Shown one piece after another: positions 2,904 to 24,844 of a stretch of DNA of 32,000 nucleotides (positions within the stretch are counted from its first letter, which is position 1; the number at the start of each line of letters is the position of its first letter). Position numbers and translations under genes: made by a program. Below the pieces are notes generated by a model, which was not told where the DNA came from, did not search any database, and was given only the letters and a program-made list of their open reading frames with translations. The DNA is from Geobacter metallireducens GS-15 (GTDB lineage Bacteria > Desulfobacterota > Desulfuromonadia > Geobacterales > Geobacteraceae), in assembly GCF_000012925.1 (NCBI RefSeq), contig NC_007517.1:2700001-2732000 (forward strand), written 5' to 3'.

Positions 2904-3068
2904 ATGGAAACCATCAAGACCGCCCTCTTCGAAACCCTGATGGAGAGTGCCGTACCCGACGGCGACAACGGCTATATCTTCACCCTGGAAGGAAAGACCT
3001 ACCGGATCAGGGACACCCTGGAGATATCCAAAATCGCCCAGGACCACGGCTACATCATAATTTACTGA
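2904..3068 (+). CDS. Hypothetical small protein (54 aa), below the ORF-track size cutoff.
   Basis: ATG at 2904 lies 10 nt after AAGGAG (2888..2893). Translation: [54 protein letters not shown], ending at TGA 3066..3068. Codons mostly end in G/C, like the surrounding genes. It fills an otherwise empty 300-bp gap. No family recognised. Confidence 0.35.
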
Positions 3069-4921
3069 CGCTCCGCCAGACCGAGCAACCCATTGATCCG
3101 CTTTCCGTCAAGGGTTTCCTCCTCAATGAGGGCCTCTACGAGGATATCGAGCTTGTCCCGATTCCCAGTGATGATCTCTTCGGCTTTGGCCTCGGCCTCC
3201 TTGATGACGACAGCGATTTCCTGATCAATGAGCCACGCCATCTGCTCGGAAAAGGTCTTCTCCTCCGCCAGCTTGCGCCCGAGAAAGGGATGTTCCTCGC
3301 CGCGCCGGAAGGTCATGGCGCCGATCTTGTCGCTCATTCCCCACTGACAGACCATCTTCTCCGCCAGATCGTTCACCATCTTGAGATCGTTCTGGGCTCC
3401 CGTCGAGAGATCGCCGAAGACGAGCCGCTCTGCTACCCTCCCTCCAAGGGCCACGGAAAGCCGGTTCACGAGATACGTCTTCGAGTAGTGGTAGCGGTCG
3501 TCCTCGGGAAGCTGCTGCGTCACCCCCAGAGCCTGCCCCCGCGGGATGATCGTCACCTTGTGGACCGGATCGGTGCCGGGAAGCAGCTTGGCCACCAGCG
3601 TGTGGCCCGCTTCGTGGTAAGCGGTAATCCGCTTCTCCTGGTCGGTGATGTACATCTTCCGCTCCCCGCCCATGAGAACCTTGTCCTTGGCCCTTTCCAG
3701 GTGTTCCATGGTAACCGTGGAGGAATTCTCCCGCGCCGCCAGTATTGCTGCCTCGTTCACAAGGTTCTCCAGGTCCGCGCCGGTCATCCCCGGCGTCCCC
3801 CGGGCAATCACCGCCAGGGACACATCTTTGTCCATGGGAATCTTACGGGTATGGACCTGGAGTATCTTTTCCCGGTCCCGCCAGTCGGGCCGATCGATCA
3901 CCACGTGCCGGTCGAAGCGGCCTGGACGGAGCAACGCTGCATCGAGGACATCGGGGCGGTTGGTAGCCGCCATGACGATGACCTCATCATGGGGATCGAA
4001 GCCATCCATCTCCGAGAGAAGCTGATTCAGGGTCTGCTCCCGCTCGTCATGGCCTCCACCGAGGCCGGCTCCGCGACTCCGGCCAACGGCATCAATCTCG
4101 TCAATGAATATAATGCTCGGCGCCGACTTCTTGGCCGTGGCAAAGAGGTCCCGCACTCTCCCCGCCCCGACGCCAACAAACATCTCAATGAACTGAGATG
4201 CGGTGATACTGAGAAACGTCACGCCCGCCTCTCCGGCAACAGCCCGGGCAAGAAGCGTCTTCCCTGTTCCGGGAGGGCCGACCAGCAGAACCCCCTTCGG
4301 CACCTTTCCCCCAATCTGCTGAAACTTTTTCGGGTCCCGCAAGTAGTCGACAATCTCTCTCAACTCCAACTTGGCATTTTCCATGCCTGCCACGTCGTCG
4401 AACGTCACCCTGCTCTTTTCACCCGGGGTATACATCTGTGCCCCGGACTTGGCAAATCCCCCCATCATCGCGCCGGGGCTCTGCCCCCGCATCCCCCTCA
4501 TGGCGAGCCACCAGACACCAATGATGAGAATCCAGGGGAGCAGATAGAGAAGTCCGCTCAAGAGGGGTGAGACCTCAGTTGTAACAGCAGTAACATCCAC
4601 CTTCTTGCTTTGTAAATCGGCCATGAGGCTTGGGTCCTCAATGGCTGGCTTTATTGTAGTAAACTGGGTGATGTCCCGAACAACCGGTTTTCCGGAAGCC
4701 GAATCGGTCAGCGGTACCTTGTTCCTGAACTCTCCGCTGATCGAATTGCCCTTAAGGCTAATCTTCTTGATGTTGTCAGCGGCCAATTCATCCTTGAAAC
4801 GACTATACGAAATGGAAACCCCACCCTCGGCAGTCTGCCGGGCGAAGTATCCATAGACAAAGTTGAATACAATAATGAGTACAAATACCAATATCAGTGG
4901 TTTCCAGACAGACTGCCCCAT
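3062..4921 (-). CDS. ftsH: ATP-dependent zinc metalloprotease FtsH.
   Basis: 619-aa ORF with two N-terminal TM segments. Motifs: Walker A GPPGTGKT, Walker B IIFIDEID, second region of homology [19 protein letters not shown], zinc site HEAGH. SD AAGGAG lies 5 nt upstream of the ATG. Confidence 0.95.
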
Positions 4922-4978: not shown

Positions 4979-5026
4979 TTGCAATGTCAGTAAAGTGGTA
5001 ACACACACTCCTTGATTTGCAAGGCA

Positions 5027-5956
5027 TTACGGGCAATTAGCACCAATGGAGAAGCGACCGAGGCCGAACGCTGCGCCTTTACCCACATTAAGGAACTCGC
5101 CTAAGAGCAAAAACGGGATAAATTCCTCGGGCACGCTGCTCAATACCGCCTCTCCGGTCAATCCGGCGAGTTTTCTCCCCTGTTTGCCCCCACCCCATTC
5201 AACCCACTGAATCGAACTGCCCGATACGGTAACCGTCTCACAGAGGGACGCCAACCACCTAAAGTCCACCAAAATCTCGTCGTCGCAGTAATAGGAAGCA
5301 AGGGATGAAATTCGTCGTATGAGGGTGCGCATCAAAAGGGGGAAAGAAAAGGTACGACTCGGCCTGCCATCCTGCATAATCTTCAGTGGCGTGAGCAGTC
5401 GGAGGGTCACGTCGCCCGAAACGTCCACCCAACGCGTGTCACAGAGCCCCTCGGACGTCAGGAGGGTGAGGGATTCTGCAAACCCGGCCGAGTGATCTGC
5501 CGCATAAATAAGGTAAGGCTCCCCACGATAGCCTAGGGATTCGACACGCTCCACGATAGCAGCCAATTCGTCTCTCTGGTCGTGTTTGGAGCAAAGAAGC
5601 TTAAGAGAATCCAGAAACTCAGTAACGAAACGTGTCGCCGTTCCCAGGAGAGCAAGACGGATCTCGAACAGAGTGTCTGATTTCTGCTGACTGGGAATTA
5701 CCGGAAATGAGAATGCAAAGGGAAGAGGGGGTTTCTGATGTCTCTTGACCGTCGCCGGATCTGAACTCAGGGCTTGGGCAAAGACGATTCGATACGGGCA
5801 CTCATTACGGCGGTTGCACAGAACACATTCCTCCTCCGCGCAACCCACCACCCGCCGGAACGATCTCTGAAATCCATCACGAATGCGAAACAAAAGATAC
5901 GGGTCAGATATGTCCTCGGCCAGACGGATCGTTATCCGCAGAACTGCAATGGTCAT
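5027..5956 (-). CDS. Cas6 / RAMP-superfamily-like protein (resembles the COG5551 / DUF2276-type Cas6 group). Orphan: no CRISPR array or other cas genes in the window.
   Basis: 309-aa ORF. The N-terminus looks like a beta-alpha unit (IAVLRITIRL...LLFRIRDGFQRSFRRVV). This is followed by a Cys cluster, GCAEEECVLCNRRNECPYRIVF (C-x4-C-x2-C-x5-C-P-Y). A second-domain segment reads VTLRLLTPLKIMQDGRPSRTFSFPLLMRTLIRRISSL. A RAMP-type glycine-rich loop, VGKGAAFGLGRFSI, lies 8 residues from the C-terminus. SD GGGGAG is 5 nt upstream of ATG 5956. Assignment is by eye only. Confidence 0.55.
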   Translation of the reverse strand: MTIAVLRITIRLAEDISDPYLLFRIRDGFQRSFRRVVGCAEEECVLCNRRNECPYRIVFAQALSSDPATVKRHQKPPLPFAFSFPVIPSQQKSDTLFEIRLALLGTATRFVTEFLDSLKLLCSKHDQRDELAAIVERVESLGYRGEPYLIYAADHSAGFAESLTLLTSEGLCDTRWVDVSGDVTLRLLTPLKIMQDGRPSRTFSFPLLMRTLIRRISSLASYYCDDEILVDFRWLASLCETVTVSGSSIQWVEWGGGKQGRKLAGLTGEAVLSSVPEEFIPFLLLGEFLNVGKGAAFGLGRFSIGANCP

Positions 5957-5971
5957 ACTTACTCCCCTATC

Positions 5972-6007
5972 AAAAAAAAATGGGGCGGATCGTTAAATCC
6001 GCCCCAT
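5972..6007 (-). terminator. Rho-independent terminator of frdCAB.
   Basis: Minus strand: 11-bp perfect stem ATGGGGCGGAT / ATCCGCCCCAT (6007..5997 and 5990..5980), loop TTAACG, then a run of 9 T (5980..5972). A smaller hairpin CCGTGC-aatg-GCACGG (6027..6012) precedes it. Confidence 0.8.
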
Positions 6008-6050
6008 CGCTCCGTGCCATTGCACGGCTTCATAATGAGTCAGGGCATCG

Positions 6051-6806
6051 CTAGAAGAGGGACTTCAGGTATTCCCTATTCAAGGTCGCGATGAATTTGA
6101 CATTGATACCCTTCGGGCAGGCAGCCTGACACTCATAGTGGTTGGTGCAGTTGCCGAAGCCACACTCCTGAAGGGCGCCCGTCATTTCCTGAACACGACG
6201 TTTCGCCTCGGCCTTGCCTTGGGGAAGGACCGCCAGTTGGGAAACCTTGGCAGAGGTAAAGAGCATGGCCGAACCGTTGGGGCAGCCTGCCACGCACGCC
6301 CCGCAACCGATGCACTCGGCAGCGTCCATGGCGTAGTCAGCGATATCCTTGGGAACTAGAAGAGCGTTGCCGTCGGCAACGCCACCGGTATGGGCAGAGG
6401 TGTAGCCACCAGCCTGGATGATCGTATCAAGGGCAGCACGGTCGACGACCAGATCCTTCACAATCGGGAATGCCCGGGCACGCCACGGCTCAATGTAAAT
6501 GGTGTCGCCATCTTTGAACATCCGCATATGGAGTTGGCAGACGGTGGTGCGGTCCTGACCGCCGTGGGGAGCGCCATTGATGACCTGCGAGCACATGCCG
6601 CAAATACCTTCACGGCAGTCGTGGTCAAAGGCGATGGGGTCCTTGCCCGCCTTGATGAGATCTTCGTTCACCTCGTCGAGCATCTCAAGGAACGACTGAT
6701 CAGGGCTGACATTCTTGGCCTCGTAGACCTCGAACTTTCCCGGATCTTTTGGGCCATTCTGGCGCCAAACATGGAGAGTAAGATTCATGGTATTATCGTG
6801 GCTCAT
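6051..6806 (-). CDS. frdB: Fumarate reductase / succinate dehydrogenase iron-sulfur subunit.
   Basis: 251 aa with three Cys clusters: CREGICGMC (2Fe-2S), [12 protein letters not shown] (4Fe-4S) and [15 protein letters not shown] (3Fe-4S). The start overlaps the frdA stop by 1 nt (TAATG). Confidence 0.9.
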
Positions 6807-8719
6807 TATTTGTAGCTCCTTATCGCCAGATGGACGTTTTCAAACTTCAGAGGTTCGATGTGGAGTTCAGGCTCTGCATTAGCCCCTTTGAACTCCCATG
6901 CAGCAGCGTGGCAGAAGTTTTCGTCGTCGCGCTTTGCTTCGCCGTCAGGCATCTGGTGCTCGACCCGGAAGTGACCACCACAGGACTCGTTACGGTAGAG
7001 GGCGTCGCGGGTCAGAAGCTCCCCGAATTCAAGGAAGTCAGCTACGCGACCGGCGTTCTCCAGGTCCTGGTTGAACTGGGCGCCAGAACCGCTGACCTTG
7101 ACGTTCTTCCAGAATTCTTCACGAAGTGCGGGGATCTTCTTGAGGGCTTCCTTGCAGCTCTGCTCGCTGCGGGCCATGCCGACGTTCTCCCACATGATCC
7201 TGCCCAGCTCGCGGTGGAATTCGCTGACAGTCTTCTTCCCGTTGATCGACATGAGCTTCTTCAAGTTGTTATTTACATCGTCAACCGACTTCTTGCACTC
7301 GGGGTTATCGGCCTTGACCTTGCCCGGAGCCGTCTTGGCCAGATAGTTGGCGATGGTGTAGGGAATGACGAAGTAACCGTCGGCAAGACCCTGCATGAGG
7401 GCGCTGGCGCCAAGACGGTTCGCCCCGTGAACCGAGAAGTTTGCCTCGCCCAGAACGAAGAGACCGGGAACGTTGCTCTCGCAGTTGTAGTCAACCCAGA
7501 GACCACCCATTGAATAGTGGGGTGCCGGGTAGATACGCATCGGCACCTTGTAGCCATTCTCGTCGGTGATCTTCTCGTACATCTCGAAGAGGTTGCCGTA
7601 CCGCTCGCGGATCGTGTCTTCACCGAGGCGCTTGATGGAAGCGGCGAAGTCAAGATAAACACCGCGACCACCCGGTCCAACGCCACGATCGTCGTCGCAC
7701 TGCTCCTTAGCGGCGCGGGAGGCGATGTCACGGGGAGCCAGGTTACCGAAGCTCGGGTACTTCCGCTCGAGGTAATAGTCACGCTCTTCCTCGGGAATCT
7801 CCCCCGGCGCGCGCTTGTCGCCCTTCTTCTTGGGAGCCCAGCAACGGCCGTCGTTACGGAGCGACTCTGACATGAGAGTCAGCTTGGACTGCTTGTCACC
7901 ATGCTGCGGAATACAGGTCGGGTGAATCTGTGTGTAGCAGGGGTTGGCAAAGAAGGCGCCTTTCCGGTGGGCCTTCCAGGCGGCGGTAACGCTGCACCCC
8001 ATGGCGTTGGTGGAGAGGTAGAAGACGTTCACGTAGCCGCCGGTGCAGAGCACAACCGCGTCACCCACGTGGCTACGAATCTCGCCGGTAACCAGGTCAC
8101 GGACTGTGATCCCCTTGGCCTCACCGTCAACAACGATCAGGTCAAGCATCTCGGTGCGGGGGAACATCTTGACGGTCCCTGCCTTGATCTGGCGGGCAAG
8201 GGCCGAGTAGGCGCCGAGCAGGAGCTGCTGCCCCGTTTGCCCCCGGGCGTAGAACGTACGGGAAACCTGGGCGCCGCCGAAGGAGCGGTTGTCCAGATAG
8301 CCGGCGTAGTCACGGGCAAAGGGAACACCTTGGGCCACGCACTGGTCGATGATGTTGTTGGAAACCTGGGCCAGACGCCAGACGTCGGCCTCGCGGGCAC
8401 GGAAGTCGCCCCCCTTGATGGTGTCGTAGAAGAGACGGTAGATGCTGTCACCGTCGTTCGGGTAGTTCTTGGCGGCGTTGATCCCCCCTTGGGCAGCGAT
8501 GGAGTGGGCGCGGCGGGGGCTATCCTGGTAGCAGAAAGCCTCGACATTGTAGCCGAGTTCACCGAGGGACGCGGCAGCGGCGCCGCCGGCAAGGCCGGTC
8601 CCAACGACAAGGATCTTGTACTTACGCTTGTTGGAGGGGTTAACCAGCTTCATGTCGAAGCGGTGCTTGTCCCATGTTTTCTCAATTGGTCCAGTCGGAC
8701 ATTTTCCGTCGAGTATCAC
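6806..8719 (-). CDS. frdA: Fumarate reductase / succinate dehydrogenase flavoprotein subunit.
   Basis: 637 aa. N-terminal FAD fold [19 protein letters not shown], the [11 protein letters not shown] region and the HYSMGG motif. GTG start at 8719 lies 5 nt after AGGGGG. Confidence 0.95.
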
Positions 8720-8728
8720 TTGAACCCC

Positions 8729-9391
8729 CTAACCTTTCAGAATGCCGGTAACGATGACAAAAGGAATGGACGCATAGCCGAGGAGAAACACAACCGCAGC
8801 GACCTTACCAATCGTGGAGAAAACCGGGCGAGATTTGTGATTGTTCCATCCCATCGTCTGGAAGAAGCTCTGGATGCCGTGGGAGAGATGAAGGAACAGC
8901 ACCACCATCGCGGCGATATAGAGAACTGCGATGATGCCGTGGGAGAAGCTGTTGGTCACCATGCCAAAGACATCGACACGACCGAGAGCGTCTACTCCAA
9001 CCTTTATATCGGGAGTAGCACGTACAGTGAATTGGAGGAGATGGTAAAGAATGAATGCCAACAGAAGAAGCCCGGTGTAGAGCATACTTGTGCTCGACAG
9101 GGTAGCCTCCTTGAGATTCTTGACCGCGTATGTGTCGGGGTTGGCGGCACGGTTTTCAAGGCTCAACTGGACGCCGAAGAAAATATGGATGATCGCCACA
9201 CAGAGTATAACAAGGCGAAAACCCCAGACCAGGGGGGGAAGTGCGTGGAGGTGCTCGGCATATGCGTTGATGCCGCCCGGAATGAAGATGGAGGAGTTAC
9301 CAAGCAGATGGACGATAATAAACAGCACCAGAAACTGGCCGGTGATCGCCATCAGAACTTTTCTTCCAACAGTACTTGTGAACAGTTGCAT
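8729..9391 (-). CDS. frdC: Fumarate reductase / succinate dehydrogenase dihaem cytochrome b membrane subunit (type B, frdCAB order).
   Basis: Multi-TM protein with conserved His-containing helices (FIIVHLLGN, YAEHLHALP, YHLLQF, FLHLSHGIQ). I prefer ATG 9391 (MQLFTSTVGRKVLMAITG, AGGGA-type SD about 8 nt upstream) over the track's upstream start at 9472. The 5' end is uncertain. Confidence 0.8.
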   Translation of the reverse strand: MQLFTSTVGRKVLMAITGQFLVLFIIVHLLGNSSIFIPGGINAYAEHLHALPPLVWGFRLVILCVAIIHIFFGVQLSLENRAANPDTYAVKNLKEATLSSTSMLYTGLLLLAFILYHLLQFTVRATPDIKVGVDALGRVDVFGMVTNSFSHGIIAVLYIAAMVVLFLHLSHGIQSFFQTMGWNNHKSRPVFSTIGKVAAVVFLLGYASIPFVIVTGILKG

Positions 9392-9571
9392 AATGATTTC
9401 CCTTTGCGCGTATTCGTTGTTTAGAATTCGAAACATCGCCACCTGAAATCTCAACTTTAACGAAAGACTCAAGCGGCCTTACGGAGAAAACCTTTGAACC
9501 GGTTGCGGAGGCGCCCGCCATTCCTTACAATTGTCCATAGTTCCCCCCTGCAAGGATTTATAGTGAATCAC

Positions 9572-9633
9572 AACATTGAGAACCATCAGAACAATGTTAA
9601 TAATTATTAATTTTTTTCTGTATACTGTATACT
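9572..9633. promoter_or_regulatory. Cluster of symmetric and repeated AT-rich elements in the frdC/tgt divergent control region.
   Basis: Read directly from the sequence. Inverted repeat AACATTG (9572..9578) - N13 - CAATGTT (9592..9598). 14-bp perfect palindrome TTAATAATTATTAA (9597..9610). T7 run. Tandem CTGTATA x2 (9618..9631, continuing CT), which contains two TATACT -10-like hexamers (9621..9626 and 9628..9633). Function unknown. Confidence 0.4.
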
Positions 9634-9879
9634 AAACGCTGTTTTAGGAAAAAGCAATAAAAAAGTAGCTCTAAAGGGGACGCGAATGCTTCTCCCGCCT
9701 GAGATTGGAACGGCTTACAGAGATCTGAGCTGCTGGGAAGAAAGCATGATATCTGCATTCAAAGGGCCGGGACGGGATGGTCTATTCGTACGTAACCCAG
9801 CAACGAATCAGAGAATTTCACGGTACAACGCGGCATTGGCCATTTGCCAAAGCGCGGTTGCTTTTTAGTGCCTGTTCTG

Positions 9880-9909
9880 TTAACAATGCTGGCCAACCAT
9901 GCAGATAAA
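9880..9909 (+). promoter_or_regulatory. Candidate tgt promoter.
   Basis: TTAACA (9880..9885), an 18-nt spacer, then GATAAA (9904..9909), about 67 nt upstream of the tgt ATG. Motif match only. Confidence 0.25.
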
Positions 9910-9936
9910 AACAGGTCTCAACTGAGTAACCATTAA

Positions 9937-11082
<1,146 letters not shown>

Positions 11083-24814: not shown

Positions 24815-24844
24815 CGTAGGGGCAATTCACGAATTGCCCCTACG
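24815..24844 (-). terminator. Rho-independent terminator after the superoxide dismutase gene.
   Basis: 13-bp perfect stem CGTAGGGGCAATT / AATTGCCCCTACG with a 4-nt loop, followed on the minus strand by CCGTTTTC. Confidence 0.65.

Follow-up and report, generated by a model that had tools for sequence, protein, structure and literature searches.

A Cas6 homologue without CRISPR linkage in a conserved chromosomal slot of the Geobacteraceae

Cas6 proteins of the AF1859 type (PF27225 plus PF10040, formerly DUF2276; COG5551) belong to type III CRISPR loci, in which they head Csm or Cmr operons and have csx16 and RAMP genes as their reported neighbours (PMC3936711). In this study we analysed a 32,000-nucleotide stretch of the Geobacter metallireducens GS-15 genome (contig NC_007517.1, positions 2,700,001 to 2,732,000; referred to below as the window), which carries a cas6-like gene of this type between the sdhCAB operon and ftsH. 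The encoded protein has the same two-domain architecture and length class as AF1859-type Cas6, the same G-loop and Arg-Arg pair and a Cys cluster in the same position. In contrast to the type III proteins, however, the Geobacter clade to which it belongs heads a Csm or Cmr operon in 0 of 87 loci, and it is without the R-G pair of helix alpha1, the His of the PHPF motif, the His of the YFH motif and the R-Y-S triplet, having an invariant Q-K-P motif instead. We consider it probable, though well short of certain, that the gene encodes a vertically inherited, exapted Cas6, which acts on host RNA as a stand-alone RNA-binding or RNA-processing protein.

Two further Cas6 proteins of known structure are close enough to be instructive. 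TtCas6A of Thermus thermophilus (TTHA0078) is also encoded outside any CRISPR locus, and it is a proven trans-acting nuclease for CRISPR RNA (crRNA), with catalytic Arg22 and His37, in a genome rich in matching arrays (PMC3902920). Its structures (4C8Y, 4C8Z, 4C97) share the Cas6 fold with our model of the GS-15 protein (Foldseek probability 1.00, target-normalised template modelling (TM) score 0.62-0.65), but in the latter the matching positions are not conserved, the sole reported array of the strain is of the type I-C class, and the gene occupies a family-wide slot. The best structural match is the Cas6 domain of the Cas6-RT-Cas1 protein of Marinomonas mediterranea MMB-1 (6DD5, 7KFT/7KFU; query-normalised TM score 0.57-0.59). 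This domain is fused to a reverse transcriptase (RT) and Cas1 in a type III-B system and contributes to crRNA biogenesis and spacer acquisition, whereas the window protein stands alone, without CRISPR partners. Non-catalytic homologues of Cas6 belong to archaea with CRISPR-Cas. In these proteins the catalytic residues are altered or missing and RNA is bound uncut, which is a possible mode for the window protein as well; the two have the Cas6 fold in common at an identity of only 8% (3QJJ, 'One RAMP protein binding different RNA substrates'). A non-catalytic Cas6 is also counted among the folds of the family in the T. thermophilus study (PMC3902920).

Cas-derived systems that have neither arrays nor adaptation genes include the haloarchaeal HRAMP and the Streptomyces minimal I-E module with a STAND NTPase (PMC8730458). 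Both are multi-gene Cascade-like modules that are thought to be defensive, whereas in the present case a single Cas6 gene stands among core genes. The reviews of Cas exaptation name multi-gene modules, and a solo Cas6 is not among them (PMC8730458). Our literature search found no paper on GSU1179, Gmet_2391-2394 or the Geobacter clade, and the terms orphan, stand-alone or solo Cas6, Cas6 outside cas loci, and DUF2276 led to CRISPR-linked descriptions only. An earlier note on this DNA, made by a model from the sequence alone, had called such a protein uncharacterised; this is fair for the gene and its G. sulfurreducens counterpart, on which our search found no paper, though RefSeq does name the protein Cas6.

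Family membership and predicted fold

The gene and the parts of its product that concern the family assignment are as follows.

5027-5956, minus strand: cas6-like gene with an ATG start, encoding 309 amino acids (aa); identified by PF10040, PADLOC Cas6 and protein identity.
5405-5956, minus strand: N-terminal RRM-like half (residues 1-184), PF27225 AF_1859_N; holds helix alpha1, the Cys cluster and the clade motif.
5054-5404, minus strand: C-terminal RRM half (residues 185-301), PF10040 CRISPR_Cas6.
5057-5083, minus strand: glycine-rich loop G292-K293-G-A-A-F-G298-L-G300 (the RAMP/Cas6 G-loop).

The 309-aa open reading frame (ORF) and the peptide strings that the earlier note quoted from it are exact, all of them being present in the translation. 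The product is 100% identical to ABB32619.1 / WP_011366046.1 of G. metallireducens GS-15. In the GS-15 genome paper, Gmet_2397-2395 are the sdh/frdCAB genes (GSU1176-1178 of G. sulfurreducens) and Gmet_2390 is the sulfhydrylase gene beyond malQ; since these tags flank the cas6-like gene, it would be Gmet_2394, and GSU1179 would be the occupant of the same slot in G. sulfurreducens.

The window protein is a Cas6-fold member of the AF1859/PF10040 group (DUF2276/COG5551). The match to PF10040 reaches 59.1 bits against a Pfam gathering cut-off of 25 (E=7e-16, residues 185-301) and spans profile positions 1-88 of 89, and the PADLOC Cas6 model PDLC01477 matches residues 1-304 (E=1e-66). The search with hidden Markov models (HMMs) that the earlier note had proposed is therefore positive for PF10040 and not for the NCBIfam equivalog TIGR01877, whose score of 15.5 bits is below the cut-off of 58.65. 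PF27225 is assigned to the N-terminal half of the GS-15 protein in the precomputed Pfam annotation, on which this assignment rests, as the direct Pfam scan of the window protein did not report it. A phmmer comparison with solved Cas6 proteins gave no match, and sequence profiles reach only the C-terminal half or the G-loop of 6DD5, 7KFT and 6FJW, with 6DD5 as the single solved Cas6 matched by sequence, via the G-loop segment (E=1.4e-4).

The glycine-rich segment VGKGAAFGLGRFSI comprises residues 291-304 and ends 5 residues before the C-terminus; the earlier note was right about the presence of this loop, while the distance of 8 residues given there was not. The window protein satisfies the published definition of the Cas6 G-loop, GhGxxxxxGhG with Lys or Arg (PMC3936711). 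G292, K293, G298 and G300 are invariant in both the Geobacter clade and the type III-linked group described below, and the C-terminal half also contains the invariant P190, R214, R215, D231, G265 and G268.

An AlphaFold2 model built with 24 homologues (pLDDT 87.1, pTM 0.88) consists of two beta-alpha-beta halves, and the protein is thus predicted to adopt a tandem ferredoxin/RRM-like fold, as in Cas6. When this model was compared with the Protein Data Bank (PDB) by Foldseek, the best 36 matches were all Cas6 proteins, the first being 6DD5 (E=1e-13), and the target-normalised TM score for TtCas6A/B was up to 0.66. The dual RRM-like fold that the earlier note expected was thus recovered, and HMM matches, fold and profile homology to type III-embedded Cas6 together bear out its placing of the protein in the Cas6/RAMP group DUF2276/COG5551 (AF1859).

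Genomic setting, inheritance and origin

The gene is flanked by two loci, which are listed as context.

3062-4921, minus strand: ftsH, the commonest downstream neighbour (Pfam).
6051-9472, minus strand: the sdh/frdCAB operon, the commonest upstream neighbour (Pfam), with B at 6051-6806, A at 6806-8719 and C at 8729-9472, all on the minus strand.

These neighbours, and their common strand, are as the earlier note had named them, and its description of the gene as an orphan holds for the whole 32 kb. No repeat-spacer array was found in the window by TRF, a direct-repeat search or a k-mer array detector, no Rfam family was found in it at gathering or permissive thresholds, no repeated hairpin family was found there, and none of the 20 other window genes scanned is cas-related. 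They include malQ, ftsH, sdhBAC, tgt, mazG, murJ, ptsP and pfpI, and genes for a DsbH-like protein, a TPR protein, a MacB-type transporter, a class II aminoacyl-tRNA synthetase and a radical SAM enzyme. The orphan status has to be qualified in one respect, namely that GS-15 is not CRISPR-free: according to its genome paper there is a 13-repeat array, and there are cas genes at about Gmet_1067-1070.

The same slot is used by relatives of the gene. The order tgt / mazG / sdhCAB / cas6-like / ftsH / malQ is common to G. pickeringii (49% identity), Geobacter sp. AOG1 (39%) and a 1-Mb metagenome contig (36%). Members of greater divergence preserve either a single flank or the same broader surroundings, for example in the orders cas6-like/ftsH/rnc/era, fdhD-mobA/cas6-like/ABC transporter/malQ/metY and sdhCAB/cas6-like/GT9/thrS. 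A profile-guided scan of metagenome contigs added 80 further loci. The clade context sample consists of 86 loci (864 kb), and the related loci in total number 87 (about 885 kb), the contexts covering up to 10 kb on each side. FtsH is encoded directly downstream in 40 of the 60 evaluable clade loci and SdhB directly upstream in 23 of 59. The conservation of gene order that the earlier note had proposed to check is thus present on both sides, but the link to ftsH is broken in several subclades. The most divergent subclade is Trichlorobacter, which is also a member of the Geobacteraceae, and Trichlorobacter thiogenes, too, has the gene directly behind sdhCAB, the 10 kb to either side being free of cas genes. 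In total the gene keeps its slot across the Geobacteraceae down to about 33% identity, which directly supports vertical inheritance.

None of these loci is linked to CRISPR. In 8 long-contig contexts, cas genes are absent from the 10 kb to the left and right of the gene; in the 86 clade loci, seeds of Cas1, Cas4, Cas5c, Cas7c and Cas8c have zero matches, and the k-mer detector, which flags 98 of 120 true array loci, found zero array-like repeats. The unclassified neighbours that were sampled in the clade loci are ordinary genes. The gene as the dedicated Cas6 of a nearby array is ruled out by the lack of arrays and cas genes in the window and within 10 kb in the relatives.

In composition the gene differs from its surroundings. 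Its G+C content is 54.0% and its G+C content at third codon positions (GC3) is 58.7%, both about 1.9 standard deviations (sd) below the other window ORFs (mean G+C 60.8%, sd 3.6; mean GC3 76.4%, sd 9.1). The low value given by the earlier note from a hand-counted sample is therefore confirmed over the full gene, whereas its comparison value of 62% for ftsH, also from a sample, becomes 58.0% at full length. The note read the low G+C as a hint of separate ancestry, and here the data point the other way: the slot is the same across the Geobacteraceae, and in 53 of 57 orthologous loci the gene has a lower GC3 than the genes around it (median -0.08; Wilcoxon p=8e-10). Because the deficit is family-wide, it is a property of the gene and not of a recent transfer, and a recent horizontal acquisition from a low-G+C source is rejected by this finding together with the conserved synteny. 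A likely cause is weak codon bias beside the highly expressed sdh and ftsH genes.

The isolation of the gene from all other cas genes, its GC3 deficit and the loss of residues conserved in its CRISPR-linked relatives might suggest a decaying, functionless remnant of a lost CRISPR-Cas system. This is contradicted by the persistence of the gene in its slot across the whole family, by an intact full-length ORF with the signature motif of the clade in 87 of 87 loci, and by 26 invariant columns among 24 sequences at 33-64% pairwise identity, to which newly gained residues conserved at 100% have to be added. Since all ORFs are intact and so many columns are invariant, we exclude a decaying relic as extremely improbable.

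The place of the clade in the wider family was examined by an exhaustive profile search, which returned 6,834 cluster representatives at E<=1e-3 with smoothly falling scores. The top ~98 of them bear the signature [KR][RK][HYF]-Q-K-P-P-L-P-F, and the next group is without it. In a neighbour-joining tree, a single split separates 116 of 116 signature-bearing sequences, joined by 1 of 62 others, from the rest, and the named members of the clade are Geobacter or Trichlorobacter only, both Geobacteraceae. By hhalign, the clade and the type III-linked group are homologous from end to end (probability 100%, E=2e-59, 318 columns), the N-terminal half aligning column for column with the type III-linked members. 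All three members of the signature-less group for which a context was available (3 of 3) head type III operons, with the gene orders Cas_NE0113 / Cas6 / Cas10 / Csm2 / RAMPs / Card1, Cas6 / Cas_NE0113 / Cmr1-6, and RT / Cas6 / ... / RAMP. From the single split in the tree, the homology and the type III-embedded relatives it follows that the Geobacter clade is one lineage that left a CRISPR-linked family.

One of the type III loci deserves a separate remark. In locus L213 (positions 8320-9615 and 10001-10957) the type III-linked Cas6 gene is preceded by a free-standing RT gene (RVT_1) and followed by unannotated genes and a RAMP gene, and it may represent an RT-associated type III variant.

Residue changes and the function of the protein

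Conservation was compared between 116 clade representatives and the type III-linked group. Both groups keep G292-K293-x3-G298-x-G300, R214-R215, D231, P190, G105, G265, G268, C47, C53, F59 and P79-F80. The lysine of the G-loop and the Arg-Arg pair are RNA-contacting elements of Cas6. The positions at which the two groups differ, and two motifs of the N-terminal half, are the following.

R26-G27 (helix alpha1): 100% in the type III-linked group, variable in the clade.
H78 (PHPF, directly before beta2): 80% in the type III-linked group, L in 89% of the clade.
H223 (the His of YFH): 90% in the type III-linked group, Y in 95% of the clade.
R256-Y257-S258 (C-terminal loop): 100/92/98% in the type III-linked group, variable in the clade.
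5717-5743, minus strand: clade signature R72-H73-Q74-K75-P76-P77-L78-P79-F80, in the alpha1-beta2 loop.
5798-5842, minus strand: Cys cluster C39-x4-C44-x2-C47-x5-C53, between alpha1 and beta2.

Residues gained in the clade are Q74-K75-P76, R72, D66 and Q61; Q74, K75 and P76 are present in 100% of the 116 representatives and absent from the type III-linked group. The active site of T. thermophilus Cas6 lies between helix alpha1, the alpha1-beta2 loop and the beta10-beta11 loop, and is formed by Arg22 and His37 in TtCas6A and by His23, His42 and Tyr256 in TtCas6B (PMC3902920). The residues lost from the Geobacter clade fall in the same elements.

His73 was considered as a catalytic histidine; this candidate is weakened by the variation at its position, where 57 of the 87 syntenic loci have H, 23 have Y and 7 have F. 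As position 73 may be H, Y or F, it is a conserved aromatic residue and not an obligatory acid/base.

The Cys cluster was described exactly by the earlier note (C39-x4-C44-x2-C47-x5-C53-P54-Y55), which associated it with COG5551/DUF2276. It is indeed a hallmark of the wider family, all four Cys being present in 100% of the type III-linked group, but in the Geobacter clade it is kept only in part, with C47 in 84% and C53 in 90% of members, and in some it has been lost altogether. Probably it forms a metal-binding knuckle; residues 41-50, in the region of the cluster, are the least confident stretch of the AlphaFold2 model (pLDDT 67).

The protein might instead be a working endoribonuclease for the precursor of crRNA (pre-crRNA), which would serve distant Geobacter arrays in trans, as TtCas6A does. 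This explanation agrees with the RefSeq annotation, which already gives the window protein as Cas6, "precrRNA processing endoribonuclease". The genome paper reports for GS-15 one small array, CRISPR3, with 13 repeats of GTAGCGCCCGCCTACATAGGCGGGCGAGGATTGAAAC (G. sulfurreducens has CRISPR1/2, GS-15 only CRISPR3), while the cas genes near Gmet_1067-1070 encode a TM1801-family Cas7, a Cas1 interrupted by an insertion sequence (IS) and Cas4. Cas6 enzymes are able to cleave repeats of this form, a hairpin with ATTGAAAC at its end, and the IS damage to the cas locus makes a back-up nuclease conceivable.

A scan for repeats of the CRISPR3 type, in which hairpin and tail were used as a pattern in one genome per species and in which the GS-15 locus is not among the matches listed, returned at least 120 array-bearing stretches, mostly from Burkholderiales and Competibacteraceae. 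Among the matches listed, two metagenome-assembled genomes of Geobacter carry almost the repeat of CRISPR3, the genes beside the arrays are Cas5c, Cas8c, Cas7c, Cas4 and Cas1c, that is subtype I-C, and none of the 120 stretches contains a relative of the window protein. In subtype I-C the pre-crRNA processing enzyme is Cas5c. As this repeat class goes with a Cas5c-processed type I-C system, the reported array of GS-15 would need no Cas6. Service to arrays in trans is further opposed by the one fixed housekeeping slot of the gene in the sampled Geobacteraceae loci, while CRISPR-Cas content varies among Geobacter species, by the disappearance of residues which the CRISPR-linked sister group keeps almost without exception, and by the Phe in 7 and the Tyr in 23 of the 87 loci at the candidate position of a catalytic His. 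We therefore regard it as unlikely, and the functional part of the RefSeq name is probably wrong. The earlier note had left two alternatives, a non-CRISPR RNA target and a distant array served in trans, and it is the former that is now better supported.

The CRISPR3 repeat of GS-15 belongs to a hairpin plus GGATTGAAAC class which, among the matches listed, is widespread in Burkholderiales and Competibacteraceae and has type I-C genes alongside. Since the cas locus is broken by IS elements (Cas1 by ISGme16), the system may be defective.

An exapted, RNA-directed Cas6 could have arisen in the following way. One copy of the gene would have been fixed between sdhCAB and ftsH in the ancestor of the Geobacteraceae, inherited vertically since then and kept intact by selection. 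The RNA-binding scaffold, consisting of the two RRM-like halves, the glycine-rich loop with its Lys and Arg214-Arg215, would have been retained, while the residues of the CRISPR-linked relatives were replaced at three positions which form the Cas6 active site, and the new invariant Q-K-P motif was acquired in the active-site loop. The most likely role of such a protein would be that of a lone structure-specific RNA-binding protein for host RNA. Cleavage of RNA may persist through other residues, with Lys75 and Tyr223 as candidates; binding without cleavage would be possible as well, by analogy with the known non-catalytic Cas6 homologues. While the residue changes themselves are directly supported by the alignments, RNA binding, a host target and the catalytic status are what we infer from them.

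Several points weigh against an exapted protein with a host RNA as its target. The active-site mapping follows the position of secondary-structure elements and not a residue-level superposition, and because Cas6 active sites are notoriously variable, the loss of conserved residues does not prove that cleavage has been lost; the GS-15 protein itself still has Arg26. The contexts end 10 kb from the gene, and the statement that GS-15 has one array only is that of the 2009 genome paper. No RNA target was found, the flanks having no conserved repeat-like hairpin save the sdhB terminator and no Rfam match, and the literature search returned no expression or phenotype data.

Flanking signals, other features of the window and implications

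Two transcription signals, the second of them putative, adjoin the gene.

5970-6008, minus strand: strong intrinsic terminator of sdhCAB, with a 13-bp GC-rich stem, a 4-nt loop and T9 (hairpin 6008-5979, then T9).
4995-5022, minus strand: putative ftsH promoter, TTGCAA and TACCAC with a 16-nt spacer, directly after the cas6-like stop codon; proposed from comparison only.

The sdhCAB terminator ends about 20 nt before the ATG of the cas6-like gene, and almost every sdhB-linked orthologous locus has a hairpin with a T-run in this position, the stem sequences being different. The cas6-like gene has no terminator of its own, and there is no room for a promoter downstream of the sdhB terminator. 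Given the distance of only about 20 nt to the ATG, the gene would be transcribed through the terminator region or from within it. Many orthologous loci have sigma-70-like boxes ahead of ftsH that follow the pattern TTGnAA-N16/17-TAnnnT (e.g. CTTGTAATGCGCCCTTTCTTGGTTAGAATTCC); a consensus promoter scanner made no call of the putative ftsH promoter in the window.

The proximity of ftsH, which is the next gene downstream on the same strand in 40 of 60 loci with no terminator between, could indicate that the Cas6 fold has been reused beyond RNA, in a partner or adaptor of the FtsH protease or, by means of the Cys cluster, in a DNA- or metal-binding protein, and the loss of the canonical active-site positions would suit such a change. 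We consider this quite improbable. The ftsH gene has its own conserved promoter-like boxes after the cas6-like stop, and the link to it is broken in the subclades beside GT9-thrS and fdhD/ABC transporter and in T. thiogenes; the Cys cluster is dispensable in some members; and the elements that are invariant, K293 and Arg214-Arg215, are established RNA contacts of Cas6.

For a substrate in cis, the intergenic regions on the two sides of the gene were searched in 27 and 50 orthologous loci; they contain no conserved repeat-like hairpin. This candidate was rejected, as the flanks show only the sdhB terminator and the ftsH promoter-like element, with no Rfam match and no hairpin family in the window. 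A transcript of the neighbourhood would be a possible target, for example the sdhCAB terminator hairpin by the start codon or the ftsH leader.

Several other features of the window are worth recording. A 54-aa ORF at 2904-3068 (plus strand), ending HGYIIIY, is convergent with ftsH and shares 7 nt with the 3' end of that gene; G. pickeringii has a nearly identical version, gene calls without a Pfam match exist for it in several orthologous loci, and it probably encodes a genuine small protein. The divergent sdhC/tgt intergenic region (9473-9975) lies in the stretch of lowest G+C content in the window (45.9%, 9001-10000) and contains, at 9587-9620, an AT-rich near-palindrome, CAGAACAATGTTAATAATTATTAATTTTTTTCTG, as a possible operator. 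Within the DJ-1/PfpI ORF, in its 5' part, there is a perfect inverted repeat of 14 nt, CGTAGGGGCAATTC/GAATTGCCCCTACG, whose arms are 2 nt apart (24815-24844); since the Pfam match begins at residue 70, the true start of the gene may be downstream, and the repeat would then lie in the leader. At the beginning of the window, the plus-strand ORFs 18-587 and 630-1034 have no Pfam matches and a first-codon-position G+C content of 82%, and synteny leads one to expect on the minus strand, at 1-1154, the 3' part of the O-acetylhomoserine sulfhydrylase gene (metY, Gmet_2390); both ORFs are probably spurious.

Recruited Cas proteins are of current interest, as illustrated by type IV systems, CRISPR-associated transposons, HRAMP and the I-E module with STAND NTPases. 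The earlier cases are multi-gene modules that are still engaged in defence or mobility, and a lone Cas6 fixed among the core genes of an entire family would be a different kind of exaptation. There is also a practical side to this observation, as the proteins of the clade are given the name "CRISPR system precrRNA processing endoribonuclease Cas6" throughout RefSeq and UniProt, and tools for counting cas genes will list a false orphan cas6 for each genome of the Geobacteraceae. Moreover, since Cas6 proteins serve as programmable RNA-hairpin binders, a variant with a new specificity could be useful.

We would suggest, as a tentative but quite possible scenario, that the Geobacteraceae have domesticated a type III Cas6 as a single-copy housekeeping gene, whose remodelled site recognises, and perhaps cleaves, a specific host RNA. 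If this is true, the protein would be the first Cas6-derived cellular factor of RNA processing or regulation, with a new catalytic or binding constellation made up of Q74-K75-P76 and Tyr223. It would also hint that Geobacter, a group that serves as a model for extracellular electron transfer, has a step of RNA processing or RNA binding that has so far escaped notice.

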